NCBI GenBank assembly: GCA_943356415.1
Contig: CALREW010000002.1
Span: 6,639 to 70,638, forward strand
Source of the DNA: Candidatus Nomurabacteria bacterium
Lineage (GTDB): Bacteria > Patescibacteriota > Minisyncoccia > Phycocordibacterales > SBAW01
Reading direction: 5' to 3'
DNA length: 64,000 nucleotides
Part shown: piece after piece, positions 2,528-62,773 of the stretch
Layout of the letters: the number at the start of each line of letters is the position of its first letter
Numbering within the stretch: the first letter of the stretch is position 1
Position numbers and translations under genes: made by a program
The notes under the pieces: model-generated
Told to the model about the DNA's origin: nothing
Database searches by the model: none
Seen by the model: the letters and a program-made list of their open reading frames with translations, nothing else

Positions 2528-4654
2528 ATGCACGAGAAGTTTCTCAAACCCTACGACGCCAAAGCCACCGAAGAGGCGACTTATAAACGCTGGGAAGAAA
2601 GTGGCTTCTTTAACCCTGACAACCTACCCCCCATCGACACCGCTCAGGGTAAGGCAGAGCGTAGCGAACCATTCACGATCATCATGCCGCCGCCGAACGC
2701 CAACGGTTCGCTTCATGCGGGCCACGCCGTATTTGTGGCTATAGAAGACCTTATGATTCGCTATCAGCGCATGCGAGGCAAAAAGGCGCTGTGGCTTCCC
2801 GGCGCCGACCACGCGGGTTTTGAAACCCAAGTCGTCTATGAAAAAAAGCTTGAGAAGGAAGGTCGCACTCGCATGGGCATGGACCCAGATGCGTTGCGCC
2901 AGGAAATCATGGACTTCACTCTTACTAATAAATCTTTTATGGAGGGGCAGCTCCGCCAGTTAGGTGCTTCTTGCGATTGGAGCCGAGAACGTTTTACGCT
3001 GGATCCGGAAATTATTGAGACCGTGTATGGAACCTTTAAGAAGCTTCACGAAGATGGGCTCGTCTATCGTGGCGCGCGTTCAATAAATTGGTGCACCAAA
3101 CACCAGACCTCACTTTCTGAACTTGAGACGGAAAGCGAGGAACGCATCGATCCTCTCTATTACATGAAATACGGGCCGTTTATCCTTGCAACCGTGCGTC
3201 CTGAAACAAAATTTGGTGACACCGCCGTTGCGGTAAACCCGAACGATCCCCGATACCAAGAATGGATAGGGAAAGAAATTGAATTCGAAGGTCTTATCGG
3301 CACTGTGAAGTTGAAAGTTATCGCTGATGAATATGTCGACCCGGCGTTTGGCACGGGCGTTGTGAAAATAACCCCAGCACACGATCCAAACGACTTTGAG
3401 ATGGCAAAGCGCCATAACCTTGAAATCGTAGAAGTAATCGATCGCTACGGTAAGCTCAACGAGAAATGCGGCAAGTACGCTGGTATGAAAGTTGAAGAGG
3501 CTCGCAAAGCAGTCGCTGCAGACCTTTTAGAGCGCGGCCTTATCGATCACGTCGACGAGGAATACAAACACGCCGTAAAAAAGTGCTACAAGTGCGAGCG
3601 TGTGCTTGAGCCGCGTGTATTGCCACAATGGTTTGTAAAAATGGCACCACTTGCCGCTCCAGTCATTGAGGCCATCGAGCGAGATGAAGTTATCTTCTAT
3701 CCCGACCACTACAAAAAGATAATGTTGCACTGGTTGCGTAATATCGAAGACTGGAATGTATCGCGCCAAATAGTCTGGGGTATACCGATTCCTGCTTGGT
3801 ACAAAGACAAGGAAGTTCATATCGGCACTGAAAGCCCGGGAGATGGTTGGATCAAGGAAACCGACACCTTTGATACCTGGTTTTCCTCGGGCCAGTGGCC
3901 CTTTGCTACGCTCGGCTATCCTGACGGCTCTGATTTTAAGCAGTTTTATCCAACACAGGTCATGGAGACCGCCGGTGAGATTATCTTTTTCTGGGTGGCG
4001 CGCATGCTTATGCTCGGAACATATCGGACCGGTCGTCTTCCCTTCTCCACTGTCTATCTACACGGCATTGTGACGGCAAAAGACGGAAAGAAAATGAGTA
4101 AGAGCAAAGGCAACGTGATAAGTCCGCTTGAGCTTTCTGAAAAGTACGGCACTGACGCGCTACGAATGGGGCTCATTATCGGCAACACGCCAGGCACCAC
4201 AACAGCTCTCTACGAGGATAAAATAAAAGCTTACAAACTTTTCTCAAATAAACTCTGGAATATCACGCGTTTCATATTCGAAAATGCGGAAACTGTGGGG
4301 CACACAGAAGATGCGCCCCTTAACGCAGCGGACGCTACGCGGTTGGCAGAATTCAAAGCGCTTGCTGCTGACGTCACAAAAGATATCGATGAATATCGCT
4401 TCTATATGGCTGGGGAAAAACTCTATGGATACCTCTGGCACACCCTTGCTGATGCTATACTCGAAGAAAGTAAGCCCATCCTCAAGGAAGGCAGCGCCGA
4501 AGCAAAAGCTTCACGCCTGACGCTCCTTATGCTCATCCTCAAGGATTCGCTGAAATTGCTGCATCCGTTCATGCCATTCATAACTGAGGAGATATGGACG
4601 CATATCCCTGCACGAAGCAATTTGCTCCTCGTTGAAGCATGGCCGCAGCCGTAA
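2528..4654 (+). CDS. valS: valine--tRNA ligase (short form lacking the C-terminal coiled-coil)
   Basis: HIGH-type motif PPNANGSLHAGHA, KMSKS motif, editing-domain signature TVRPETKFGDTAVAVNP, and an anticodon-binding region. At 708 aa it is shorter than the usual 860-950 aa. Confidence 0.9.
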   Translation: MHEKFLKPYDAKATEEATYKRWEESGFFNPDNLPPIDTAQGKAERSEPFTIIMPPPNANGSLHAGHAVFVAIEDLMIRYQRMRGKKALWLPGADHAGFETQVVYEKKLEKEGRTRMGMDPDALRQEIMDFTLTNKSFMEGQLRQLGASCDWSRERFTLDPEIIETVYGTFKKLHEDGLVYRGARSINWCTKHQTSLSELETESEERIDPLYYMKYGPFILATVRPETKFGDTAVAVNPNDPRYQEWIGKEIEFEGLIGTVKLKVIADEYVDPAFGTGVVKITPAHDPNDFEMAKRHNLEIVEVIDRYGKLNEKCGKYAGMKVEEARKAVAADLLERGLIDHVDEEYKHAVKKCYKCERVLEPRVLPQWFVKMAPLAAPVIEAIERDEVIFYPDHYKKIMLHWLRNIEDWNVSRQIVWGIPIPAWYKDKEVHIGTESPGDGWIKETDTFDTWFSSGQWPFATLGYPDGSDFKQFYPTQVMETAGEIIFFWVARMLMLGTYRTGRLPFSTVYLHGIVTAKDGKKMSKSKGNVISPLELSEKYGTDALRMGLIIGNTPGTTTALYEDKIKAYKLFSNKLWNITRFIFENAETVGHTEDAPLNAADATRLAEFKALAADVTKDIDEYRFYMAGEKLYGYLWHTLADAILEESKPILKEGSAEAKASRLTLLMLILKDSLKLLHPFMPFITEEIWTHIPARSNLLLVEAWPQP

Positions 4655-15358: not shown

Positions 15359-15458
15359 ACCCGTAAGTTATGATTATGCAAACCAGTATACCCCACATAC
15401 CGCGGTGTTTTGCGAGACTTCATACTGTGAAAAACGTTGCCACGTCTGGCTTAAACAG

Positions 15459-15497
15459 AGAACATCTCGCGATAAGCGAGATGTTCTCATGTTTTTT
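15459..15497. terminator. hairpin with flanking A/T runs immediately 3' of rnpB
   Basis: GAGAACATCTCGCGATAAGCGAGATGTTCTC followed by TGTTTTTTGG on the plus strand. In minus orientation it directly follows the RNase P RNA 3' end. Confidence 0.5.
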
Positions 15498-15850
15498 GGC
15501 GCACCTATAAGCCGAATTCTGTACTCTTGCGAGTGACAACTATCTATCTAGGACCGACATCGCTATCGGTCTCAAGCGGCTCTTCTCCTGTCAATTTCTC
15601 GACAAAAGACACGGCCTTGCACTTAAGGATAAGGATTTTGCCGTTTCATTCTCGTCTTGCGACGAGACACATCCCCGAAGGGAGCCTCCGGCTTTCGCCT
15701 CGGGCGTTTCTGCTCGCACCTCTCGGGTTACCCCGGACAGGCGTTACCTGCTATCCTCTCAATTTCATCCACCGAAGGTGGCAAAATTGGAACGTGTTCG
15801 GACTTTCCTCACAAGAACCTAAGCCCTTGCGCAGTTGTCCAGTGCGCCGC
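15498..15850 (-). ncRNA. rnpB: RNase P RNA, bacterial type A
   Basis: Minus-strand sequence contains the universally conserved P4 strands GAGGAAAGTCCG... and ...ACAGAATTCGGCTTAT, the J11/12 motif GGTAACGCCTG, GTGCGAGCAGAAACGCCC, GCTTGAGACC and CCTAGATAGATAG. A P1 helix can form between GGCGCACT and AGGTGCGCC. No protein-coding signal; the overlapping tracked ORFs are spurious. Confidence 0.8.
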
Positions 15851-16007
15851 GGCAAACTATACCACACTTCCCGTCTTGACCCAACTTCCTTTACACTTCC
15901 ATCACACTAAAGTCGATGAAGTGCGCGGCGCGAGTGAAGCCCGAAGCGAGCCGTATCTCGCATACGGTGAGTGAGGACTGGAGCGAGTAACAAAGCAATT
16001 CGCGACT

Positions 16008-23941: not shown

Positions 23942-24006
23942 GGGGTCGCGTGAAAGTTATCTATATAAAGTGCCCGGTATTCCCCGTCGCCGGGGGTAGA
24001 GGCACC

Positions 24007-24034
24007 AGTATAGAGGATTGGTATATGCAGTCAA
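24007..24034 (-). promoter_or_regulatory. sigma70-like promoter of the groES-groEL operon
   Basis: Minus-strand TTGACT, a 16-nt spacer, then TATACT, about 65 nt upstream of the groES ATG. An inverted repeat at 23970..24006 lies in the 5' UTR. Confidence 0.45.
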
Positions 24035-24036
24035 CG

Positions 24037-24072
24037 ATTAAAAAGGAATCGCCCAGGCCTCCCGGCCTGGGC
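24037..24072 (-). terminator. rho-independent terminator of purL
   Basis: Minus-strand CCCAGGCCGGGAGGCCTGGG hairpin followed by CGATTCCTTTTTA, 27 nt after the purL stop. Confidence 0.6.
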
Positions 24073-24098
24073 GTATCCGTCTGTTCGACCAGCGGTGC

Positions 24099-27000
24099 TC
24101 ACTGGTGTGCAAGGCACCAGCAACACGCGTTTTCGAACATCCTGAGCCAGGGGGAGGCGGCATCCTCCTTCCAATTGTCAGGCGTATAGACCCATTGCCA
24201 CGGAAGAACCGCGCGCTCAGGGTGCGGCATCATACCGAGGTGACGTCCGTCCGCAGAGCAGAGCCCTGCGATGCCGAGCGGCGAACCGTTCGGATTGTAC
24301 GGGTAGCTTTCAGTCGAGATGCCTTGCGGCCCCACGAACCGAAGTGGTAAGAGCTTCTTACGCATGATATCCGCGAGCACGTCTTGGTTCGGGAAGTTGT
24401 ATCTCCCCTCACCGTGCGCACTATGGATGCCCAGCACTGACCCTTCCATCCCTTGCAAGAAGATGGACGGGCTCTCGTAGATGCGCAGCATGCTCCACCG
24501 AGACTCAAACCGTCCCGACGCGTTGTGCCCCAAGTACGGGCGCGACGCCTCGTCACGGTCGCTTCCAGGCAGAACTTTCAGATGCTGCATGAACTGGTTG
24601 CCGTTGCAGACTCCCAGCGACAACGTATCGGGGCGCTTGTAGAACGCCTCGAACATCCTGCGCACCTTGCGATTGAAGCGAACCACAGCCGCTTGACCAC
24701 GCCCCGCACCGAAGACGTCCTTGAACGAAAACCCTCCGGGGTACGCGAGCAGTTGGAACTGGTCCAGCGTGCTCACGCGTCCTTCGAGGATGTCGCTCAT
24801 GTGAACGTCCCACGGCGAGAAGCCTGCCAAATGCAGCGCGCCCCACATCTCCTCGTGGCCGTTACTCCCCTCTTCGCGCAGCACTGCAGCTTTCGGCCGC
24901 GTTGCCGTTTGAGAGAAGACCGCCGGAGCCGTCGGCGTGAAAGAGCGCTTGTACCGCACGGGCTTCGCTGCCTGATGCGATTTCGCTTCCTCACACGCCG
25001 TTGCAGTAGCGCTCTGCCCTGCGTTCAACGCATCGCTCGTCGATTTCCACCATTCACGCAGCGTCGTGATCTGCTCGCCCATAACAAGCGAGCCACGCGC
25101 ATCGCGAACACTGAGACGCCGCACCGATGTATTCCCGCGACCCAGGCGCACCATTCCGACGCCAAGGTTCTTGAAGGTCGAGGTTATGGACGCCTCGTCC
25201 TCCATCGCATACGCAAACACGTACCCGGCTTCCTCGGCGAAGAGGTACGGCAGCGGATCTACTCCTTGCGGGAGGTTGATCTGCATGCCGAAGCCAGACG
25301 CCACGCACATCTCGACGAGCGTTGCGATAAGCCCGCCGTGACTACGCGCGTGGTACGCGAGTACTTGCCTGCGCATGTGCAGCATTTGGAGTGCTTCAAG
25401 GGACTGCCGAAGCAGCTCAGGATCGATGTCGGGGCATTCGTTGCCGAGCTGTCCCAACGTCTGAGCGAGGCTCGAGCCGCCGAGGCGATTCAAACCTTTC
25501 CCTAGATCAACAAAGCCGATTGCGACACCAGCCTTCAAAGAAGGCAGCGCCGCAGTCACTCCACGCCGAATGTTGAGCACCGGCGCGTAGCCCGTGAGGA
25601 CAAGCGTGCCTGGCGAGGCAACTGTTACCCCACCGATTTTCACCGACATGGACAAGCTGTCCTTACCGCCGGTAATGCGAGTCCTCGTACGGTTGTGGAT
25701 GTCTGCGAGGGCGTCGGCCGCCGCATACAGACGAGCCATTTCTCCTTTCATGCTCGCTGGCCACATCCAATTAGCCTGAGTGCAGATTTCCTGCGTTCCG
25801 GAAATTGCCGCCGCACCCATATTGAGGTACATGTCTGCATACGCCATTCGCGCACCGGCCCGAGGGTCGATGAGCGACATGATAGGCCGCTGCCCCACCG
25901 TCATTGCGGCACCGGTTGTCGTGAAGTAAGAGTCGGAAGTTACGCCGACCCGACCGACAGGCACTGCCATCGGTCCGCACGTATGTGAGCGTGCCACTTT
26001 GCCTCCAACACTTGAATCACCGAGCGTGGTGACCCATCGGTTGGAACCAACCCTGGGAAGCCGCAGCACATTGCGCAACGCCTCGGTGACGCTTAATCCC
26101 TGAGGGATTCTAAGCGGCGGGAGTTCACGCGCGACCGTCACGTCTTCGATCGTGAGCTGACCGACCGCACGACGCAATTCCGCGTAGGTGAGATCGACAA
26201 GCGTCGCATCGTCGGTCGAATCGATGAAGCGGATGGTGCCGCTGTCATCGACTTTGCCCAACACTTCAAGTGGCACACGCTCTCGCGTGCAAATCGCTTG
26301 AAACACCGGCAGATCTTCCGGTGCAATGACAACGCCGAAGCCCTCTTGGCTTTCGCCGAGTAGCTTTTCAACTCGCCGAATCGACGGATCACCCAAATTG
26401 AGCGCTCCGAGGTCGAGCGTGGCGCCGAGCTGATCAACGAGCTCGGTACCGAGACTTCCGACGCCGGCTGCGCCCTGGTCGTGGATGGCCTTGAACGGAT
26501 TGCGCCCAAGCATCGCGACTGCAGCGTTGATGGCGCGGAACGTACGGCATCCCATCTCTGGGTCGCCGCGTTGCACCGCCTCATCATTCTGTTTTGCCGA
26601 GTTCGCACTCTGATCGGCACTTGAAGCAGTAGCGCCACCGAACCCTAAGTTGAACGTCGGTCCGCCGTAGCGGATGGCGAGCATCCCTGGTTTCAATTCC
26701 GCTTTCTTCTGGTGCTGACTGAGTACGCGACCCATGCCGCCGACAACGAGAATCGGCTTTCGATTTCCCACCCGATCACCCCACGGCATTCCTTGCTCGA
26801 AGGAATCGATGTTCCAGAGGATGGTCGGGTGACCAGACGCGTTGGCGTAATCACACGCACCGTGCGCCCCTTCAAGCAGAATGCGCAGTGGCGTAGCTAG
26901 TGTTGGGTCATGCAGTTCTGGGATTTCGCCCGGGATCGCATGCCCCTTGATGTTGAGGTTGCCGACGGAGATGCCGGCCCATAGCGCAACGCCTGGGTAT

Positions 27001-27932
27001 GCGCCGATGCCGATGGCATAGAGGTCGCGCAGAAGTCCTCCGACGCCGGTTGCCGCACCAGGAAACGGTGCGATCGATGTCGGGAAATTATGCGTTTCGA
27101 CTTTGCCTGTCGGGTTGAGTGTGTGTCGCACGATTGCACCGGTCGTTTTGTCGACGACGAAACAAACCGGCGACGGACCACCCGGTTCAAGTGGCAGAAA
27201 CAGCGGCACCGGCGCAAGTCCGTGCATGGCGCTCGCGTTGTCGCTGAAGGCGACCGTCGCGATGCCATGCTCAGCTCGGTGAGGTGCCCTGACAAGATCA
27301 AACAGCGTGTACGGCATGACGTTGCCATCGATGACGATACGCGCGTTGAACTTCAGGTGTCGGCTGTGGTCTGAGTTGTACGCCGGGAGGAAGAACAGCT
27401 CTTCGACAGTCGGGTCGCGACCTTTCTGAACGAAAAAGGCTGTGTAGGCCTCCTGCTGTGCGACGCTTAGCCCGATGCTGAACTCAGTGTTCGCACGTCT
27501 GAGCGCCTCCACTCCTTCCGTCATCACCGGAACTCGGACAAAGCGTTCCGCCGTCCGAGCACCAGTAAGTGTCGTGGGCAGCGTGGCGTAAACCGACTGG
27601 GTCATACGGTCGAAGCCTTGCGCGAGCAGCTGCTCCTCGGTTTGCGTGCCGAGGACGCGATGCTCGAACCGTTCGATTCGCGTCACGGGAACGTCGATTG
27701 ACCCGAGAATGGCCGAACCATTGGCCGACTCAGGCGTCGAGAACATTAGACGCGGTCCGACGGTTAGCATGCCGGCGAGATCCGGCTGAACATTTCTGAC
27801 CGAATGACCTGAACCGCCAAGAAGATATTCCAACTTGACGATATCAGCCGGCTTGAGCGCTCGCGCGGACTCGACAATAAAGCAATCGACCGGCGCGCCG
27901 CCTTTGTGGCGGTAGAGTACGGACGTATGCAT
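24099..27932 (-). CDS. purL: phosphoribosylformylglycinamidine synthase, large single-chain type (PurL with fused glutaminase domain)
   Basis: AIRS-type motif HNFPTSIAPFPGAATGVGGLLRD and a C-terminal class-I GATase motif LSLGVCNGNQFM, about 1277 aa. The tracked ORF is extended to 28223; the ATG at 27930-27932 (MHTSVLYRHKGG...) is the likely start. The gene is about 60% GC, above the 50% background. Confidence 0.9.
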   Translation of the reverse strand: MHTSVLYRHKGGAPVDCFIVESARALKPADIVKLEYLLGGSGHSVRNVQPDLAGMLTVGPRLMFSTPESANGSAILGSIDVPVTRIERFEHRVLGTQTEEQLLAQGFDRMTQSVYATLPTTLTGARTAERFVRVPVMTEGVEALRRANTEFSIGLSVAQQEAYTAFFVQKGRDPTVEELFFLPAYNSDHSRHLKFNARIVIDGNVMPYTLFDLVRAPHRAEHGIATVAFSDNASAMHGLAPVPLFLPLEPGGPSPVCFVVDKTTGAIVRHTLNPTGKVETHNFPTSIAPFPGAATGVGGLLRDLYAIGIGAYPGVALWAGISVGNLNIKGHAIPGEIPELHDPTLATPLRILLEGAHGACDYANASGHPTILWNIDSFEQGMPWGDRVGNRKPILVVGGMGRVLSQHQKKAELKPGMLAIRYGGPTFNLGFGGATASSADQSANSAKQNDEAVQRGDPEMGCRTFRAINAAVAMLGRNPFKAIHDQGAAGVGSLGTELVDQLGATLDLGALNLGDPSIRRVEKLLGESQEGFGVVIAPEDLPVFQAICTRERVPLEVLGKVDDSGTIRFIDSTDDATLVDLTYAELRRAVGQLTIEDVTVARELPPLRIPQGLSVTEALRNVLRLPRVGSNRWVTTLGDSSVGGKVARSHTCGPMAVPVGRVGVTSDSYFTTTGAAMTVGQRPIMSLIDPRAGARMAYADMYLNMGAAAISGTQEICTQANWMWPASMKGEMARLYAAADALADIHNRTRTRITGGKDSLSMSVKIGGVTVASPGTLVLTGYAPVLNIRRGVTAALPSLKAGVAIGFVDLGKGLNRLGGSSLAQTLGQLGNECPDIDPELLRQSLEALQMLHMRRQVLAYHARSHGGLIATLVEMCVASGFGMQINLPQGVDPLPYLFAEEAGYVFAYAMEDEASITSTFKNLGVGMVRLGRGNTSVRRLSVRDARGSLVMGEQITTLREWWKSTSDALNAGQSATATACEEAKSHQAAKPVRYKRSFTPTAPAVFSQTATRPKAAVLREEGSNGHEEMWGALHLAGFSPWDVHMSDILEGRVSTLDQFQLLAYPGGFSFKDVFGAGRGQAAVVRFNRKVRRMFEAFYKRPDTLSLGVCNGNQFMQHLKVLPGSDRDEASRPYLGHNASGRFESRWSMLRIYESPSIFLQGMEGSVLGIHSAHGEGRYNFPNQDVLADIMRKKLLPLRFVGPQGISTESYPYNPNGSPLGIAGLCSADGRHLGMMPHPERAVLPWQWVYTPDNWKEDAASPWLRMFENACCWCLAHQ

Positions 27933-27959
27933 GGCGTGCCCCTTCCTGTGGCAGATTTC

Positions 27960-27994
27960 AAAAAAACACGCACCCTCTACAAAGAGAAGGTGCA
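27960..27994 (-). terminator. intrinsic terminator / attenuator hairpin inside the purL 5' leader
   Basis: Minus-strand GCACCTTCTCTTTGTAGAGGGTGC (9-bp stem) followed by GTGTTTTTTTG, ending about 28 nt upstream of the purL ATG. Confidence 0.5.
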
Positions 27995-28088
27995 TCCAAA
28001 TGAACAGTACCACTCGCCCTCTATATGAAAAGGTGGGCCAGGCCCCTATGCGTTGCACGCAAAAGAGGCCTCTGATAGAGTGGGCGTA

Positions 28089-28319
28089 ATGGATGCTCAA
28101 ACGGTGCTTCCCTATGTCGAAATAGGGCTCTCCGTCCTCATCATCGCGGCCGTCCTGCTTCAACAGAGCGGCGCATCGATGGGCGGTACCCTCGGAGGCG
28201 ACAACTTCTCTGCGGCGTTCCACACACGCCGTGGCGCTGAGCGCGTTCTCTTTTACGCGACCGTTGTCCTCGGGGTACTCTTCGCGCTTACGGCTGTCTT
28301 CGCGCTCATCATCGCGTAG
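28089..28319 (+). CDS. secG: preprotein translocase subunit SecG
   Basis: Two TM helices and LLQQSGASMGGTLGG. The tracked ORF starts at 28053; MDAQTVLPYVEIGLSVLIIAAV fits SecG N-termini better. Confidence 0.7.
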   Translation: MDAQTVLPYVEIGLSVLIIAAVLLQQSGASMGGTLGGDNFSAAFHTRRGAERVLFYATVVLGVLFALTAVFALIIA

Positions 28320-28369
28320 GCCACAAAAGCGGCATCCACTGCCACTCCCTTACTTAGATTTCTCGCGCT

Positions 28370-30124
28370 ATGGATCTGATTCGGCGGACACTCTCCGCCC
28401 GCATACACATTCCTGGCCTCACTGCGGCCAATGATATTGTCTCGGGACTAACCGGTCTCGGTCGTTTGTTATTCTTTTTCTTCGCCGGCCTTCTCGTCGC
28501 AAGCTCAATCGCGCTTGTGTGTATGGCGAGCAAGAACTTTCTCGTTGAAGTACCCGCTGCAGGCGGTTCTATCACTGAAGGAGACGTTGGTGCGCCGCGT
28601 TTTATCAACCCACTTCTTGCACTCTCAGAAGCAGATCGTGACGTGGTAGCGCTTGTATATTCGGGTCTTCTGCGCGCAACACCAGAAGGAACGTTTATTG
28701 CTGACCTCGCCGAGAGTTACTCCATAAGTGAGGACGGCAGAACCTATTCCTTTACGTTGCGTCCTGACGCCACCTTCCACGACGGCACACCCGTTACCGT
28801 AGACGACATTGTGTACACCGTTGAGCGCGCGCAAGATCCGGCCATCAAAAGTCCGAAGCGCGCCAACTGGGACGGCGTAACCGTTGAAAAAATTAACGAC
28901 CGCGAAGTTACCTTTACCCTGCGCGCGCCGTACGCTCCGTTTATCAGCAATGCCACGATGGGCATATTGCCCAAGCATCTTTGGGAAGAAGTCTCCGCTG
29001 AAGAATTTCCATTCAGCAACCTCAATACCGAAGCGATAGGTACCGGACCGTATTTCATATCGTCAGTCTCGCGCAATGCCTCGGGTATTCCAGACACGTA
29101 TCAACTGAGCCCCTTTAGTGACTACGCGCTTGGGAAGCCGTACCTCAGTCGCATTACGCTGCGTTTTTATGAAAGTGAGGATGAACTTATCAGTGCACTC
29201 AGCCGAGGAGAAGTCGAAGCAGCAAGCGGACTGACCCCCGCAAAACTCTCGTCGCTCCCTGAAGGAACGTCGATACGTCGCGCGCCGCTCAATCGTGTGT
29301 TTGGTGTCTTCTTCAATCAAAACCAATCCGAGGTACTCCGCGAACCTGAAGTGCGCACCGCGCTAAGCCAAGCAATCGACCGCGAGGCACTTGTTTCTGA
29401 AGTCCTCGAGAGTTACGCAACTCCTATTAACGAGCCTCTGCCGCCAGGCATCGCTCCGGCGTCACCTACACCAGTCGCAGTCGCAACCACGTCTCCATCC
29501 GCCGCAGCACGCGCATATCTTGAAGCGCGCGGTTGGAAATATGACGACAATCTTGGAGCGCTCGCACGAAAAAAAGGAAAGACGACCGAGGTACTGCGCT
29601 TCACACTCGCGACTGCGGATGTGCCTGAACTTCGCGCTGCCGCTGAGTTCGTTCGCGCTGCATGGAAACAAGCGGGTGCCGATGTTGAAGTAAAAATCTT
29701 CGAATCGGGGGACCTCAACCAAAACGTGATACGGCCACGCAAATACGACGCACTCCTCTTCGGCGAGATTGTGGGACGCGAACTTGATCTCTTTGCATTC
29801 TGGCACTCAAGCCAGCGCAACGACCCAGGGCTTAATATTGCCCTCTATGCAAATGCGACGTCCGACAACTTGCTTGAGGAATTACGTGTGGCACAAAGCG
29901 CATCGGAACGCCGCAGCTTGTATGAAAAGTTCCGTACCGAGCTCGCCAAAGATACGCCAGCGGTATTTCTCTACGCACCAGACTTTACCTACGCATTTCC
30001 AAACCACATCGAGGGTATGCAGCTGACTGCCATTTCGCAGCCCTCGGAACGCTTCCTTGACGTCTATCGTTGGCACCGCGAGGTTGACCTGGTTTGGACG
30101 TTCCTAACCCGTTTTACGCAATAA
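28370..30124 (+). CDS. ABC transporter substrate-binding protein, family 5 (peptide/nickel type), membrane-anchored
   Basis: N-terminal TM anchor plus SBP_bac_5-like regions (FTLRPDATFHDGTPVTVDDIVYTVERAQDPAIKSP...). Confidence 0.8.
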   Translation: MDLIRRTLSARIHIPGLTAANDIVSGLTGLGRLLFFFFAGLLVASSIALVCMASKNFLVEVPAAGGSITEGDVGAPRFINPLLALSEADRDVVALVYSGLLRATPEGTFIADLAESYSISEDGRTYSFTLRPDATFHDGTPVTVDDIVYTVERAQDPAIKSPKRANWDGVTVEKINDREVTFTLRAPYAPFISNATMGILPKHLWEEVSAEEFPFSNLNTEAIGTGPYFISSVSRNASGIPDTYQLSPFSDYALGKPYLSRITLRFYESEDELISALSRGEVEAASGLTPAKLSSLPEGTSIRRAPLNRVFGVFFNQNQSEVLREPEVRTALSQAIDREALVSEVLESYATPINEPLPPGIAPASPTPVAVATTSPSAAARAYLEARGWKYDDNLGALARKKGKTTEVLRFTLATADVPELRAAAEFVRAAWKQAGADVEVKIFESGDLNQNVIRPRKYDALLFGEIVGRELDLFAFWHSSQRNDPGLNIALYANATSDNLLEELRVAQSASERRSLYEKFRTELAKDTPAVFLYAPDFTYAFPNHIEGMQLTAISQPSERFLDVYRWHREVDLVWTFLTRFTQ

Positions 30125-30177
30125 GTTCGAGTGCAACTTTTACTAACAACTATCAATTAACATCTTCCGATTCGTTT

Positions 30178-32139
30178 ATGACTCCATCATCAGATAACAC
30201 AGCCAAGCCGCAGCGTTCGTCTCCGCAAGGAGGTTCCGCTGGTGCACGACGCGGCTCGCAAGGTCCTCGCCGATTTGGTGCCGCCGCAGGAGGAAATGGC
30301 CCACGTGGCGCACGACGTGGCGGACGTTCTATGCATCCTGCGCGCAGACAAACTCCCGGCTCGGCACCGCGCCCAGAGTTCGACCCAGACTTTGTTCGTC
30401 CTGCAGACGGTTTTGAAGGAGAAAGCGCTCCTGAGCGTGAGGCGGAGGACAACATTCCACCACTCGCTCCCGGAAACATCCGCATCATTCCGCTCGGCGG
30501 CGTCGAAGAAATCGGCCGCAACATGACACTGTTTGAGTACGGCGACGATATCATCATTGTCGACTGCGGGTTCCAATTCCGCGAAGACGATACGCCCGGC
30601 ATCGACTACATTCTGCCAAACACCAAATACCTCGAGGATCGGAAGAGTAAAATCCGCGGCATCTTCATTACGCACGGACACCTCGACCACATCGGCGCTA
30701 TCCCCTACGTTATCGACCGCATCGGGTATCCGCCGATTTACAGCCGTCGACTCACGACGGTGATGATCCGAAAGCGCCAGGAAGAATTTCCTCATCTGAA
30801 GACCATTGATATCCGCGAGGTTGAGAAAGAGGAGACGATACGCGCTGGCGCACTCAAGATTCGCTTCTTTGCGGTTACTCATACCATCCCCGACTCGATG
30901 GGTATCATCATTGAAACCCCGCACGGCGACATCGTTCACACGGGTGACCTCAAACTCGATCACGAAGGTGGCGTTCCGTCGAAGCGCGAAGAAGAAGCGT
31001 TCGGCATCTTCAAAAAAATGAATGTGTTGATGCTGCTTGCCGATTCAACGAACGTGGAGAAGCCGGGATTCTCAATTCCAGAAACGACGGTCTATAAAAA
31101 CATCGAGGAAGTCATACGCACGGTAAAGGGGCGTCTCGTTATCGGTACCTTCTCTTCACAGCTTGAGCGCATCATGAAGATTGTTGAGTTTGCTGAAGCA
31201 GCTGGCAAAAAAATCTGCATCGAAGGCCGCAGCATGAAGGTCAACGTAGAGATTGTGCTCCAGCTTGGCATGCTCAAAGCAAAGAAAGATACCTTCATCA
31301 CCGCCGAACAAATGGCGTCGCTTCCTGACAACAAGGTCATCGTACTTGCAACGGGCGCTCAAGGAGATGAGTTTGCTGCACTTATGCGCATGGCCATGAA
31401 GACGCACAAGTACGTCAAGATAAGCAAGAACGATACGGTATTGCTTTCATCGTCCGTCATCCCTGGCAACGAACGCTCCGTGCAGAAGCTCAAAGATAAC
31501 CTCAGCCGCCAAGGCGCGCGTATCATCCACCAAGCGACGATGGATGTTCACTCTTCAGGACACGCCAATCGTGACGAAGCTGTCTGGATACATCAAAAAG
31601 TTAATCCGCGCTTCTTCATTCCGCTGCACGGCTACCACTACATGCTCCGTGTACATGCCGATATCACCAAGGCGCTCGGCCGCGGCGAAGACGACGTAGT
31701 CATCGCTGACAACGGCACCATCATCGAAATACGCGATGAGGGCACAAAGCTGGTACGCCTCAAGGAAAGCGCCCCTACTTCGATTCGTATGGTTGACGGC
31801 TTCGCAATCGGCAACATCCAAGAAGTCGTTATCCGCGATCGCAAAGCGCTTGCCTCCGACGGTATGTTCGTCGTGATTGCGACCGTAAACCCAAAGACCG
31901 GCAAATTGCGCAAGTCACCTGACATCATCTCTCGCGGGTTCGTATACTTGCGCGAGTCGCAAGAACTCTTGCAGCAAGCGCGCATTATCGTCAAGAAAAC
32001 CATCGAGGACTCGAGTCACGGCCAACAGCCCATTAACTTTGATTTCGTGAAAGGCAATGTCACTGACGGTTTGTCGCGCTTCCTCTTCGGGAAGACCAAC
32101 AAACGCCCGTTAGTAATACCCGTGATACTTGGGGTATAG
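30178..32139 (+). CDS. rnj: ribonuclease J with an Arg/Gly-rich N-terminal extension
   Basis: Metallo-beta-lactamase / beta-CASP core (IIPLGGVEEIGRNM..., HGHLDHIGAIPYV) preceded by GSAGARRGSQGPRRFGAAAGGNGPRGARRGGRS. The tracked ORF starts at 30094, overlapping the upstream gene; the ATG at 30178 is more plausible. Confidence 0.85.
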   Translation: MTPSSDNTAKPQRSSPQGGSAGARRGSQGPRRFGAAAGGNGPRGARRGGRSMHPARRQTPGSAPRPEFDPDFVRPADGFEGESAPEREAEDNIPPLAPGNIRIIPLGGVEEIGRNMTLFEYGDDIIIVDCGFQFREDDTPGIDYILPNTKYLEDRKSKIRGIFITHGHLDHIGAIPYVIDRIGYPPIYSRRLTTVMIRKRQEEFPHLKTIDIREVEKEETIRAGALKIRFFAVTHTIPDSMGIIIETPHGDIVHTGDLKLDHEGGVPSKREEEAFGIFKKMNVLMLLADSTNVEKPGFSIPETTVYKNIEEVIRTVKGRLVIGTFSSQLERIMKIVEFAEAAGKKICIEGRSMKVNVEIVLQLGMLKAKKDTFITAEQMASLPDNKVIVLATGAQGDEFAALMRMAMKTHKYVKISKNDTVLLSSSVIPGNERSVQKLKDNLSRQGARIIHQATMDVHSSGHANRDEAVWIHQKVNPRFFIPLHGYHYMLRVHADITKALGRGEDDVVIADNGTIIEIRDEGTKLVRLKESAPTSIRMVDGFAIGNIQEVVIRDRKALASDGMFVVIATVNPKTGKLRKSPDIISRGFVYLRESQELLQQARIIVKKTIEDSSHGQQPINFDFVKGNVTDGLSRFLFGKTNKRPLVIPVILGV

Positions 32140-34778: not shown

Positions 34779-35030
34779 TTAGGCTTTCGGGCGAGCTTCG
34801 CTCACGGTGAGCGAACGACCGCCAAAATCCTTACCATTCCACATTTCGATTGCAGCCTGTGCCTCAGCATCAGATGCCATCTCGACGAAGCCGAAACCCT
34901 TCGAGCGGCCAGTCTCACGGTCCATAACGATGGAAGCCGATGCAACTGATCCAGCCTGAGCGAAGGACTCTTCGAGCTCCTCTTTGGTGGTGCGGTACGG
35001 GAGACCGCCTACGAATAGCTTTGTAGCCAT
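34779..35030 (-). CDS. RRM-type RNA-binding protein (glycine-poor, single RRM)
   Basis: RNP2 KLFVGGL and RNP1 KGFGFVEM. An untranslated leader of about 100 nt lies upstream. Confidence 0.8.
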   Translation of the reverse strand: MATKLFVGGLPYRTTKEELEESFAQAGSVASASIVMDRETGRSKGFGFVEMASDAEAQAAIEMWNGKDFGGRSLTVSEARPKA

Positions 35031-36585: not shown

Positions 36586-37152
36586 TTAGGAAAGATACCC
36601 GTGATCTGCAAAGTAAGTTTTGAGTGCCCGCAGTGCTCTCACCTGCAGCTGGCGGACCGCCTCCTCACTTTTACCAAGAACGGCTGCCGCTTCTTTCACC
36701 GGTTTCTCTTCTATCAACCGTAATGATATGACATGCTGCTGCTCCTCGGTAAGGGTCTCCATCGCCTCGCGCAAATGCCCTGTATCCCACAAAAGACTTG
36801 CAGACTCTTGAGGCGTTGGCATGGTGGTATCCGGAATGTCCGGCATATCCATTTCATCCAATCGCTCAGTCTTCCTCTTTTTACGATAATCGATGATGGT
36901 ATTGCGAGCCGTCGTGTAGAGGAACCCTAACGGATGTGCGTCGCGCATTTCAAAACGATCGAGATATCCATAGACCTTGAGAAAGACATCTTGTGCCAAA
37001 TCTTCGGCTACTTCTTTCTCTTTCACTCGAAGAATGATGAAGCGATATACCGGGGTATACCATTCTTCATAGAGCTTCGCGAAAGCGTCTTGGTCGCCAT
37101 CCTTGGCGAGCCCTATAAGTTCTCTAAATCGGTCTGCTGCGCTCCTATCCAT
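36586..37152 (-). CDS. ECF-type RNA polymerase sigma-70 factor
   Basis: Region 2 (FAKLYEEWYTPVYRFIILRVKEKEVAEDLAQDVFLKVY) and region 4 HTH (EKPVKEAAAVLGKSEEAVRQLQVRALRALK). Confidence 0.85.
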   Translation of the reverse strand: MDRSAADRFRELIGLAKDGDQDAFAKLYEEWYTPVYRFIILRVKEKEVAEDLAQDVFLKVYGYLDRFEMRDAHPLGFLYTTARNTIIDYRKKRKTERLDEMDMPDIPDTTMPTPQESASLLWDTGHLREAMETLTEEQQHVISLRLIEEKPVKEAAAVLGKSEEAVRQLQVRALRALKTYFADHGYLS

Positions 37153-44466: not shown

Positions 44467-46020
44467 ATGGCTCGCCCGAAGATTCTTGTCGTGGAGCTCG
44501 GCTCCCAATACACCCAGATCATCGGCAGGGCCCTGCGCGAGCTCGGGTACCGTACTGCCATCCTCGACCCTAAGAAGGCCGAGAGGTGGGCTGCGAATCA
44601 CGAGGTCAAGTGCGTCATTCTCTCCGGCGGTCCCCATTCGGTAACCGACGTGGATGCGCCGAAGCCTACGGAGCAGATGATGCGTCTCCTCTCCGAGCGC
44701 AACGTCCCCATCTTCGGGATCTGCTTCGGCATGCAGTGGCACGCACACCTCCTCGGCGGCACCGTCGAGAACATCGAAGCCAACCGCGAGTTTGGTCACG
44801 CGCTCGCCGCGCTTGATCCAGCGTCGCCGCTTTTCGCTGGCCTCAATGAAGAAGAGCGAGTCTGGGCGAGCCATGGCGACACGGTCACCACGCTCCCCGA
44901 CGGCTTTAAGGCCATCGGCTGGCAGACCACGAGCGGTGCTATCACCGCCATGGCCTCGACCAACGAACGGGTCTTCGGCGTGCAGTTCCACCCCGAAGTG
45001 ACCCACACACCCTCGGGCAAGGCGATCCTCGAGAACTTCGTTTCCAGCATCGCTGGCTGCGAACGCGACTGGGACCCGACGCTCTTGGTCGGAGAAATCC
45101 GCCAACATCTGTCGGAGCTCGCCAAGGACGGTGCGAAAGCCATCATCGGCTTCTCTGGCGGCGTCGATTCAACGACGCTCGGCGCCATCGCCTCTTCGGT
45201 CTTCGGCGAGCAGCTGCTCGCAGTTGCCGTGGACGCTGGCCACATGCGCGAAGACGAGATGGAGGAAGTGAAGCGGCACGCACAAGCGGCCGGTCTCACC
45301 CTACGGATCGTCGACGCACGCGAGAAGTGCCTCAAGGCACTCTCGTTCGAGACAGACTCCGAGAAGAAGCGAAAGGCCTTCACCAAGATCTACGAGGAAG
45401 CCTTCGCCGAAGTGGCGGCCGAGTTCGACGCCACCATCTTCCTGCAGGGTACGCTGGCGCCCGACGTCATCGAATCCGGCGAAGATGGACGCGACCTCAT
45501 CAAGTCGCACCACAACGTCAAGGCGAAGGTCGAAGGTTGCGAGTCGTTGCACCCGCTCGCGAGCCTCTTCAAGTACGAGGTCCGCGAAATCGCCAAGAGC
45601 CTCGACCTTCCCGAAAGCGTCTGGAAGCGCCAGCCGTTCCCGGGACCCGGCCTCACACTGCGCGTTGTCGGTGCCATGGTGACCGACGACGCGATGGCGC
45701 TAGTCCGCAAGGCGGACGCCATCGTGACCCGCGTACTCAAGCAGCACGGCGAGTACGACAAGGTAGACCAGCTGGTCGTGGCGATGCTGTGCATCAAGAC
45801 GACCGGGGTCAAGGGCGATGCGCGTTCCTACGGCTTCTCGATCGCCGTACGCGGCGTCATCACTTCCGACTTCATGACTGCGGAAGGGTACGATTTCCCA
45901 ACCGCCGTGAAGAAGGAGATCTCGCGCCAGGTCACCAAGCTCAAGATCGGTTACTACGACATCGTGCGTGTCCTGTGGGACACCACCGACAAACCGTCGG
46001 GTACGACGGAATACGAATAG
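44467..46020 (+). CDS. guaA: GMP synthase (glutamine-hydrolysing)
   Basis: GATase GICFGMQ with a catalytic Cys, PP-loop FSGGVDS, and the GMP synthase C-terminal domain. RBS GAGGAGGGG upstream. The gene is about 62% GC with strong GC3 bias, above the background. Confidence 0.95.
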   Translation: MARPKILVVELGSQYTQIIGRALRELGYRTAILDPKKAERWAANHEVKCVILSGGPHSVTDVDAPKPTEQMMRLLSERNVPIFGICFGMQWHAHLLGGTVENIEANREFGHALAALDPASPLFAGLNEEERVWASHGDTVTTLPDGFKAIGWQTTSGAITAMASTNERVFGVQFHPEVTHTPSGKAILENFVSSIAGCERDWDPTLLVGEIRQHLSELAKDGAKAIIGFSGGVDSTTLGAIASSVFGEQLLAVAVDAGHMREDEMEEVKRHAQAAGLTLRIVDAREKCLKALSFETDSEKKRKAFTKIYEEAFAEVAAEFDATIFLQGTLAPDVIESGEDGRDLIKSHHNVKAKVEGCESLHPLASLFKYEVREIAKSLDLPESVWKRQPFPGPGLTLRVVGAMVTDDAMALVRKADAIVTRVLKQHGEYDKVDQLVVAMLCIKTTGVKGDARSYGFSIAVRGVITSDFMTAEGYDFPTAVKKEISRQVTKLKIGYYDIVRVLWDTTDKPSGTTEYE

Positions 46021-46045: not shown

Positions 46046-46084
46046 GAAGGGCGCCGGCGGAAGCCGACGCCCTTCGTCTTTTTA
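46046..46084 (+). terminator. rho-independent terminator of guaA
   Basis: GAAGGGCGCCGGCGGAAGCCGACGCCCTTC followed by GTCTTTTT. Confidence 0.6.
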
Positions 46085-46098
46085 AAATTGGTTAGGGA

Positions 46099-62526: not shown

Positions 62527-62562
62527 ACAAACGCCCCGGCTTTTGGCCGGGGCGTTTGTATT
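62527..62562. terminator. bidirectional rho-independent terminator after the csp gene
   Basis: ACAAACGCCCCGGCTTTTGGCCGGGGCGTTTGT. Confidence 0.65.
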
Positions 62563-62575
62563 GTGACAATACGGT

Positions 62576-62773
62576 TTACTGTCTCGTGACCTGCACTGCG
62601 TTAGGACCCTTGTCGCTTTCTCCTATTTCGAAAGAGACAGAATCACCAACGCGGAGTTCATCGAACGTGACGCCAACAAGGTCCTTGGAGTGGAAGAAGA
62701 GGTCTTTTGCCTCCCCTTCACGGGCAATAAAGCCAAATCCGCGGTCCGTGAGCGTCTTAATTGTTCCAATCAT
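62576..62773 (-). CDS. cold-shock protein (CspA family)
   Basis: RNP motifs GFGFI and a full 65-aa CSD (MIGTIKTLTDRGFGFIAREGEAKDLFFH...). A 5' leader of about 130 nt lies upstream. Confidence 0.9.
   Translation of the reverse strand: MIGTIKTLTDRGFGFIAREGEAKDLFFHSKDLVGVTFDELRVGDSVSFEIGESDKGPNAVQVTRQ

Follow-up and report, generated by a model that had tools for sequence, protein, structure and literature searches.

A probable aptamer-less attenuator in the leader of purL, an inserted gene of a Candidatus Nomurabacteria contig

The purL gene on a 64,000-nucleotide (nt) stretch of Candidatus Nomurabacteria DNA (contig CALREW010000002.1, positions 6,639 to 70,638; hereafter the window) is preceded by a canonical element of the intrinsic terminator type, a hairpin followed by a U-tract, at which transcription is predicted to terminate. 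Comparison with related genomes indicates that purL is a horizontally inserted, self-contained single-gene cassette in a Patescibacteria-type lineage. The reading put forward here, with moderate confidence, is that the leader element is a selectively maintained intrinsic terminator that acts as an aptamer-less, promoter-proximal attenuator on this cassette. A first-pass annotation of the window had seen in it a candidate riboswitch expression platform or novel sensor. That idea is not upheld: the conserved blocks upstream are the promoter of the divergent secG gene, there is no Rfam match, and no antiterminator scores above shuffled controls. The most informative results are that purL is a self-contained insertion splitting the promoter pair of groES and secG, and that the secG promoter accounts for much of the presumed sensor.

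The leader and the genes on either side of it have the following features.

27968..27995, minus strand: leader hairpin, with its 5' arm at 27995..27985, loop at 27984..27979 and 3' arm at 27978..27968
27960..27967, minus strand: U-tract, a G and then U7 (T run at 27966..27960), abutting the 3' side of the hairpin
27948..27953, minus strand: conserved TGCCAC between the U-tract and the Shine-Dalgarno (SD) sequence, complementary to a conserved GTGGTA at 28013..28008
27939..27947, minus strand: SD sequence of purL, AGGAAGGGG, 6 nt 5' of the ATG at 27932
24099..27932, minus strand: purL, a large-type FGAM synthase of 1277 amino acids (Pfam FGAR-AT_N, linker, AIRS_C, PurM_N-like, GATase_5)
28089..28319, plus strand: secG, 76 amino acids (PF03840, E = 2.6e-11), divergent from purL

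On the minus strand the leader runs GGTACTGTTCATTTGG, then the hairpin at 27995..27968 (ATGCACCTTCT, loop CTTTGT, AGAGGGTGCGT), G, TTTTTTT, GAAATCTGCCACAGGAAGGGGCACGCC and ATG. The stem has 11 base pairs (bp) including two U.G pairs, the loop has 6 nt, and the predicted free energy is -16.3 kcal/mol (RNAfold). Here the first-pass annotation was right. Its strong intrinsic terminator is present in the purL 5' leader, the 9-bp stem that it noted extends to 11 pairs, and the U-tract ends 27 nt before the purL ATG (27932..27930), where it had given about 28 nt. It was also correct that no upstream gene on the minus strand could use this terminator. The upstream neighbor across the purL/secG spacer (27933..28088) is secG on the opposite strand, and no co-directional gene lies upstream.

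A standard terminator consensus scan recovers the leader hairpin with its U7. Stem-loops of the form expected for intrinsic terminators (a stem of at least 5-6 bp with G-C pairs, and a loop of 3-8 nt) are found both in the window and in L001, a related locus described below, and a U-tract abuts the 3' side of the stem in the window as well as in L001 and its close relative L029. When both strands of the 64 kb are scanned for hairpins of at most 32 nt with a free energy of -12 kcal/mol or lower and at least six T in eight positions, four sites qualify, and the purL leader is one of them. The terminator hairpin 5' of purL is not a chance feature. Remaining compact canonical terminators stand at the 3' ends of genes or tRNAs (5852, 12940, 20132, 21869, 24078, 34735, 56164 and 62562). 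The one at 62562 was considered as a second leader-type site and rejected, because it is the 3' terminator of a cold-shock gene.

The position of the element has a direct consequence for purL expression. Since the 27 nt between the U-tract and the ATG include the SD, no promoter fits downstream of the terminator, and every purL mRNA must be a read-through product.

Loci that carry purL fall into two deep lineages, lineage A (the window, L027 and L028, 99-100% identical) and lineage B (L001 and L029, 99.5% identical). L027, L028 and L029 were taken from cluster members that are 99-100% identical to known lineages, and the effective sample is two independent lineages. Spacer identity between them is 45-60%. 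At the homologous position, L001 and L029 have a hairpin of different sequence, with 10 bp, one bulge, a 4-nt loop and a free energy of -12.2 kcal/mol, and G and U6 follow it at the homologous place. This hairpin keeps the same distance as that of lineage A from a conserved TTTGGA and from the SD, which is GAAGGGGGG in L001 and GAAAGGGGG in L029. Anchored at the base of the stem, the pairs in lineages A/B are AU/GU, UG/AU, GC/CG, CG/UG, CG/UA, CG/CG, UG/UA, UA/CG, CG/CG and UA/GC. In this structure-anchored comparison of two hairpins, for which the positional homology of individual pairs is uncertain, five pairs differ by double-sided and three by one-sided pair-preserving changes, and two are unchanged. 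Within lineages, the sole change in the hairpin is an A-to-G substitution in L027, a strain 99.1% identical to the window, which converts U-A to U.G and keeps the pair. The changes in L029 and a 12-nt duplication in L027 fall outside the hairpin. The duplication (AATCTGCCACAG twice in tandem, at about 1465..1488 of L027) lies between the U-tract and the SD and duplicates TGCCAC.

Alignment of orthologous leaders, a check proposed in the first-pass annotation, has therefore come out in favor of the element: the hairpin is conserved, with pair-preserving changes, in lineage B, the only lineage with a homologous leader. Although the stem sequence has turned over, the structure and the U-tract persist where a neutral relic should have decayed, and this pattern in two independent lineages argues, in a suggestive rather than statistical way, that the hairpin and U-tract are under selection. 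A stem that retains its structure but not its sequence from one lineage to the other indicates selection at the RNA level. For the same reason an operator in the form of a DNA palindrome, such as CIRCE bound by HrcA, was rejected; the window also contains no CIRCE match.

The origin of the leader becomes clear from relatives that lack purL. In 16 loci of the clade (found with tblastn), groES and secG are direct divergent neighbors with no purL between them. The distance between the two genes is about 137-146 nt in the purL-less loci L007-L010, whose SecG is 92% identical, and in L026. When the junctions in the window are compared with these uninterrupted spacers, homology stops at GCAACGCA (28049) and restarts at CGTTGACT (24036). 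The junctions mapped in this way define an insert of about 4.0 kb (28048..24037) that separates the -35 boxes of groES and secG, which stand back to back in the uninterrupted loci. The cassette and the promoters in and around it, scored with a position weight matrix (PWM), are listed here.

24037..28048, strand not applicable: inserted purL cassette of about 4.0 kb, comprising a 53-nt 5' flank, the hairpin with U7, the ribosome binding site (RBS), purL and its own 3' terminator
24040..24078, minus strand: purL 3' terminator, GGATACGCCCAGGCC GGGA GGCCTGGGCGATTCC followed by T5, free energy -27 kcal/mol
24007..24034, minus strand: groES promoter TTGACT-N16-TATACT, ancestral and kept 3' of the cassette, PWM score 13.4, aligning with L007, L009 and L026
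28053..28081, plus strand: secG promoter, -35 TTGCAC at 28053..28058, N17, then TGa and -10 TAGAGT at 28076..28081, PWM score 10.6
28008..28033, minus strand: cassette-specific conserved block CCTTTTCATATAGAGGGCGAGTGGTA (also given as CCTTTYCWTATRGRGGGCRRGTGGTA), overlapping the candidate purL promoter
28004..28031, minus strand: candidate purL promoter, -35 TTTTCA at 28031..28026, N16, then TGg and -10 TACTGT at 28012..28004, PWM score 6.9

The nucleotide identity of purL between lineages A and B is 67%. The host genes on either side share 72% identity between the two lineages and 69% with those of the purL-less L007, values that fit one old insertion in the common ancestor of the two lineages. 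No direct or inverted repeats were found at the cassette junctions, and an origin as a transposon, insertion sequence or integron is unsupported with junctions of this kind. G+C content is weak evidence for transfer, as purL is richer in G+C than its flanks in distant relatives too. No further relatives were found in a scan of GTDB representative genomes with the purL protein or the invariant secG DNA, in a search with the N-terminal part of the purL protein, or in a scan of viral contigs and a blastn search of plasmids. A scan of JGI metagenomes with SecG yielded purL-less loci only.

These relatives also change the meaning of the sequence upstream of the hairpin. The distal conserved blocks CCCACTnTAnCAGAG and GCAAC are equally conserved in L007-L010 and L026. 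Because they are kept without purL and read as the secG promoter on the plus strand, they are not a purL sensor. The roughly 100 nt that had been taken as one unit upstream of the terminator does not hold together as such: the distal 40 nt of the spacer (28088..28049) are ancestral secG-promoter sequence, and only 53 nt 5' of the hairpin (28048..27996) are specific to the cassette. Within them, block CCTTTTCATATAGAGGGCGAGTGGTA is common to both lineages; it occurs once in the window and is missing from purL-less loci. The secG promoter, of the extended -10 type, stops 7 nt short of the secG ATG, and the predicted secG transcription start site (TSS) is 28088/28089, so that the secG mRNA is predicted to be leaderless. 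The 5' part of secG (28089..28260, plus strand) is itself unusual. Across the window, L001, L007-L010 and L026 it is 85-100% identical in DNA sequence, where other genes are about 69-72% identical; the window and L001 share an uninterrupted stretch of 57 identical nt, and 30 nt are invariant in all loci. This suggests that the first 20 or so codons of secG are under nucleotide-level constraint, and since the invariance of the first 30-57 nt or so is also seen without purL, it is unrelated to purL.

The purL gene itself is most likely transcribed from a modest promoter carried by the cassette. The candidate listed above has the best PWM score on the purL strand in the window's cassette flank. 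The best purL-strand candidate of L001, TTTCCT-N16-TGgTAGGCT (PWM score 5.6), occupies the homologous position. The -10 box TACTGT resembles that of guaA (TACAGT) and those of secG (TAGAGT/TACAGT); the groES -10 is TATACT. Predicted start sites are G27997 in the window and G3937 in L001, in both cases within the conserved TTTGGA and 1-2 nt before the hairpin. The purL start codon is the one at 27932. In the window the reading frame stays open upstream to 28223, and a longer start was considered and rejected: upstream of the MHTS start that it shares with the window, L001 carries an in-frame stop, and the upstream peptides of the two loci bear no relation to each other, which makes MHTS the true start.

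The leader was examined for the components of known regulatory RNAs. Covariance models of Rfam give nothing meaningful in 27700..28500 at E<=10, and no purine, ZTP or PRPP match. At gathering threshold they find only tRNAs in the whole window and nothing in L001, L007 and L008, which bears out the first-pass annotation's judgment that these purine-related aptamers are absent. Antiterminators were sought with PASIFIC-style criteria (PMC5314783), as simple stem-loops that start upstream and overlap the terminator's 5' arm. The search yields nothing but long hairpins with a 4-5 nt overlap of that arm; shuffled upstream sequence does as well in 7 of 60 and 6 of 60 cases, and no candidate is homologous between the lineages. 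Folds of the nascent transcript leave the 5' arm of the terminator unpaired in both lineages. The mutually exclusive terminator and antiterminator structures once envisaged are not seen above shuffled controls.

Other kinds of leader element were also sought. There is no conserved leader open reading frame (ORF): the upstream frame is open in the window and stopped in L001, the peptides are unrelated, and the AUG at 27994 of the window is absent in L001. The leader motif is unique in the window and in the loci, and lies upstream of no other gene. The purL leaders of L002, L003 and L005 (43-44% amino-acid identity) contain no homologous leader. Three protein-binding signals were judged by eye and rejected. 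A PyrR-like UCAGAGG lies in the secG promoter and is conserved without purL, the repeated triplets expected for TRAP are lacking, and GGA motifs of the CsrA type are not conserved at the SD. By these tests the purL leader has no riboswitch aptamer, no antiterminator and no motif that recurs elsewhere. An aptamer-less attenuator, protein-mediated or other, is possible.

The proposed mechanism follows the order of these parts. The cassette came to lie between the divergent groES and secG promoters of the ancestral locus, in the gap between their -35 boxes. Its modest promoter, TTTTCA-N16-TGgTACTGT, would fire at the foot of the hairpin with a start at G27997, giving a transcript that begins with GGA and continues into the hairpin and U7. 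RNA polymerase would reach the terminator about 35-40 nt after initiation, where a fraction of complexes would terminate. Read-through transcripts alone would reach the SD and purL, so that the attenuator throttles purL expression, and the read-through mRNA would carry the hairpin as a 5'-terminal stem-loop. The read-through fraction may be fixed, or it may be modulated by nucleoside triphosphate (NTP) pools, Nus factors, cold-shock-type RNA chaperones or another protein. The window encodes several generic candidates for trans-acting factors that could modulate RNA structure or transcription, namely a bacterial RNA-binding protein of the RRM_1 type (34779..35030, minus strand), a cold-shock protein (62575..62772, minus strand) and a sigma factor of the extracytoplasmic function (ECF) type (36586..37152, minus strand); nothing ties any of these to the purL leader.

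Several points weigh against this mechanism. The purL start site and the termination event are both predictions, and the promoter scores of 6.9 and 5.6 are within a range that is frequently reached by chance (253 PWM matches of at least 7 in 128 kb). The evidence for selection comes effectively from only two independent lineages, and the compensatory tally shares the uncertainty of the alignment from which it is drawn. The complementarity of GTGGTA and TGCCAC makes sense only if transcription starts upstream of 28013. If it began further upstream, this pairing would enclose the terminator. Both 6-mers are invariant between the lineages, so there is no covariation, and GTGGTA also serves as the extended -10 of the candidate purL promoter. 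Finally, a strong constitutive terminator immediately after a weak promoter would be an odd design unless read-through is modulated.

Among the alternatives, the one that deserves most attention, although it is unlikely, is that the hairpin is a 5'-terminal stabilizing stem-loop combined with a U-rich translational enhancer, and protects the mRNA against decay that depends on the 5' end, for example by RNase J, with negligible termination. In both lineages the start site is predicted at the hairpin's foot, which fits this, as only two unpaired nucleotides would remain at the 5' end with a start at G27997. RNase J is encoded 2 kb away, the groES leaders of the clade also bear a promoter-proximal hairpin of variable sequence, and 5'-terminal stem-loop stabilizers are an established concept (Emory et al. 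1992, as cited in PMC3997798). However, a stabilizer needs no U-tract, yet both lineages keep U7 or U6 right against the stem although the rest of the spacer is only about 50% identical, and the groES leader hairpins lack U-tracts. A hairpin with U7 is also expected to terminate some transcripts whatever its other role. A second and more doubtful possibility is that the hairpin was the terminator of an upstream gene in the donor and now either blocks stray transcription from upstream or antisense to secG, or has no function. The purL promoter would then overlap the terminator (TTGTAG-N16-TGAAAT, TSS about 27948). The element does lie inside the inserted segment, and in each lineage a weak promoter-like site (score 3.6 in both) overlaps or follows the hairpin, the two positions being homologous. 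These sites are very poor, however: that of the window lacks the A at position 2 of the -10, and about 2600 matches of at least 3 occur in 128 kb. A functionless relic should have decayed in such a spacer while structure and U-tract are in fact kept, and there is no plausible upstream minus-strand promoter that needs insulation.

Two sensing mechanisms appear highly improbable. If transcription started within the secG promoter or coding sequence, or farther upstream still, 28088..27996 could be a novel aptamer and the leader a riboswitch or other ligand sensor. A weak promoter-like sequence, TTGAGC-N17-TATCAG (score 6.1), would yield a 133-nt leader of this kind, the GTGGTA/TGCCAC complementarity is conserved, and the 176-nt leader region of the window folds better than shuffled sequences (z = -3.2). 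But the homologous region of L001 folds no better than its shuffles (z = -0.07), the upstream -10-like box lacks the T at -7, and this reading must contend with the missing Rfam matches, the merely 53 or so cassette-specific nucleotides, the distal blocks that match the secG promoter in genomes without purL, the antiterminator candidates that neither beat shuffles nor are shared, and a motif found before no other gene. Scarcely any credence is likewise given to reiterative transcription of the pyrG type. Here scarce ATP at +3 would cause stuttering at the initial G, and the resulting 5' poly-G would pair with the 5' arm CCUUCUCUUU and block the terminator, so that purine shortage induces purL. 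Both lineages keep TTTGGA at the predicted start, the 5' arm in the window has a run of 10 pyrimidines whose pairing with G8-G14 is worth -9 to -12 kcal/mol, and the mechanism is documented for Bacillus subtilis pyrG (10.1101/732214). It requires a run of at least three G, however, and the start has only two in both lineages (GGA). The L001 arm CUAUCUCC is less rich in pyrimidines and pairs weakly with poly-G (-5 to -7 kcal/mol), the terminator always wins in equilibrium folds, and the start site is a predicted one. A broader idea, which is very unlikely as well, is that the cassette carries a minimal aptamer-less switch that responds to purines. Initiation at TTT-GGA would be sensitive to ATP/GTP through reiterative G addition or start-site choice, with a G-rich 5' end transiently sequestering the 5' arm or the U-tract, and the cassette would then bear a purine version of the pyrG mechanism on a mobile single-gene unit in a bacterium of the candidate phyla radiation (CPR). 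In another form of the idea, a trans-acting RNA-binding factor would open the hairpin.

The surroundings of purL give some context for the aptamer-less attenuator favored here. The closest relatives of PurL are 63% identical and the next at most 44%; the closest (P0002, 63%) sits in the syntenic locus L001. On the minus strand purL is followed by groES and groEL, and beyond secG are a family-5 solute-binding protein and then RNase J (30094..32139). The first-pass annotation had described a lone purL with no other pur genes in 64 kb. This is accurate for de novo pur genes, none of which is found among the Pfam-scanned ORFs of the window, but guaA (GMP synthase) is present at 44467..46020 on the plus strand, in a GC-rich bin (0.596). 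It has a promoter, TTGCAT-N16-TACAGT, and its own 3' terminator at about 46048..46085. The guaA leader in the window has no leader terminator and nothing comparable to the purL leader. In this region purL may be an isolated step of its pathway.

Other hairpins in similar positions are worth recording. A distant Patescibacteria purL (L002, 44%) has a terminator-like CCGCTCGAAAGGGCGG followed by TTTT at 2861..2885 (plus strand), in a divergent spacer about 120 nt before the start, with a promoter-like TTGCGG...TAGGAT after the hairpin. This element is not homologous to the purL leader hairpin of the window. The groES leaders of the clade (24006..23942, minus strand, in the window; 2430..2362 in L007; also L008, L009 and L026) have conserved GCC...GGC outer pairs around a C-run/G-run hairpin of variable sequence immediately after the -10, which may be a clade-specific chaperonin leader element. 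At 15454..15493 (plus strand) a hairpin of -25.5 kcal/mol followed by TTTTTT lies in a divergent spacer with no co-directional upstream gene and no Rfam match, 34 nt before a doubtful ORF of 127 amino acids (15527..15910, no Pfam match). This hairpin may mark where a small RNA ends, or it may be a further leader terminator.

These results remove a false riboswitch lead, as half of the apparent sensor is the promoter of the divergent neighbor. Divergent spacers can set a trap of this kind, and here it was exposed only through relatives without purL. The locus offers a clean example of a small-genome, Patescibacteria-type bacterium gaining one large purine-biosynthesis gene as a unit with its own 5' and 3' terminators, placed between two housekeeping promoters with neither damaged. 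Upkeep of the 5' terminator through stem turnover suggests that limiting or gating purL transcription has been selected. A read-through that responds to nucleotides would make this a very compact piece of regulation, and a constitutive one would make the hairpin an ordinary element for damping expression.

In its structure the purL leader element is an intrinsic terminator and attenuator-like, without a module for alternative structures, and it belongs to no Rfam family. Like purine, ZTP and PRPP riboswitches (Rfam), it places a terminator hairpin ahead of a gene for purine biosynthesis. Unlike them, it has neither an aptamer nor a covariance-model match, and the conserved sequence upstream is the secG promoter. 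It also resembles leader attenuators identified by Term-seq and PASIFIC (PMC5314783), in which a GC-containing hairpin with a U-tract likewise stands between the promoter and RBS of a biosynthetic gene and read-through is obligatory. The regulated members of that group have a four-strand architecture of anti-antiterminator, antiterminator and terminator that is not detectable in the purL leader, whose predicted length 5' of the hairpin is only about 2 nt. Stem-loop stabilizers of the ompA/papA type (Emory et al. 1992, cited in PMC3997798) resemble it in having a hairpin a few nucleotides from the predicted 5' end, and RNase J is encoded here, but they are not known to have a U-tract, whereas the purL leader has a conserved U6-U7 that makes its structure a canonical terminator.

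A parallel in a nucleotide-biosynthesis gene is B. subtilis pyrG, where attenuation is CTP-sensitive and relies on a run of three G. Four or five G work but regulate less well, and at least five suppress slippage (10.1101/732214). Reiterative starts are also enriched at nucleotide-metabolism genes in Streptococcus agalactiae (PMC4448216). The purL leader differs from pyrG in starting with GG rather than GGG, the sensed nucleotide would be ATP, and the pyrimidine richness is only partly conserved in lineage B. Like pyrG, it has an aptamer-less leader terminator near the predicted start site of a nucleotide-biosynthesis gene and a predicted start at G residues, and in the window the 5' strand of the terminator is pyrimidine-rich.

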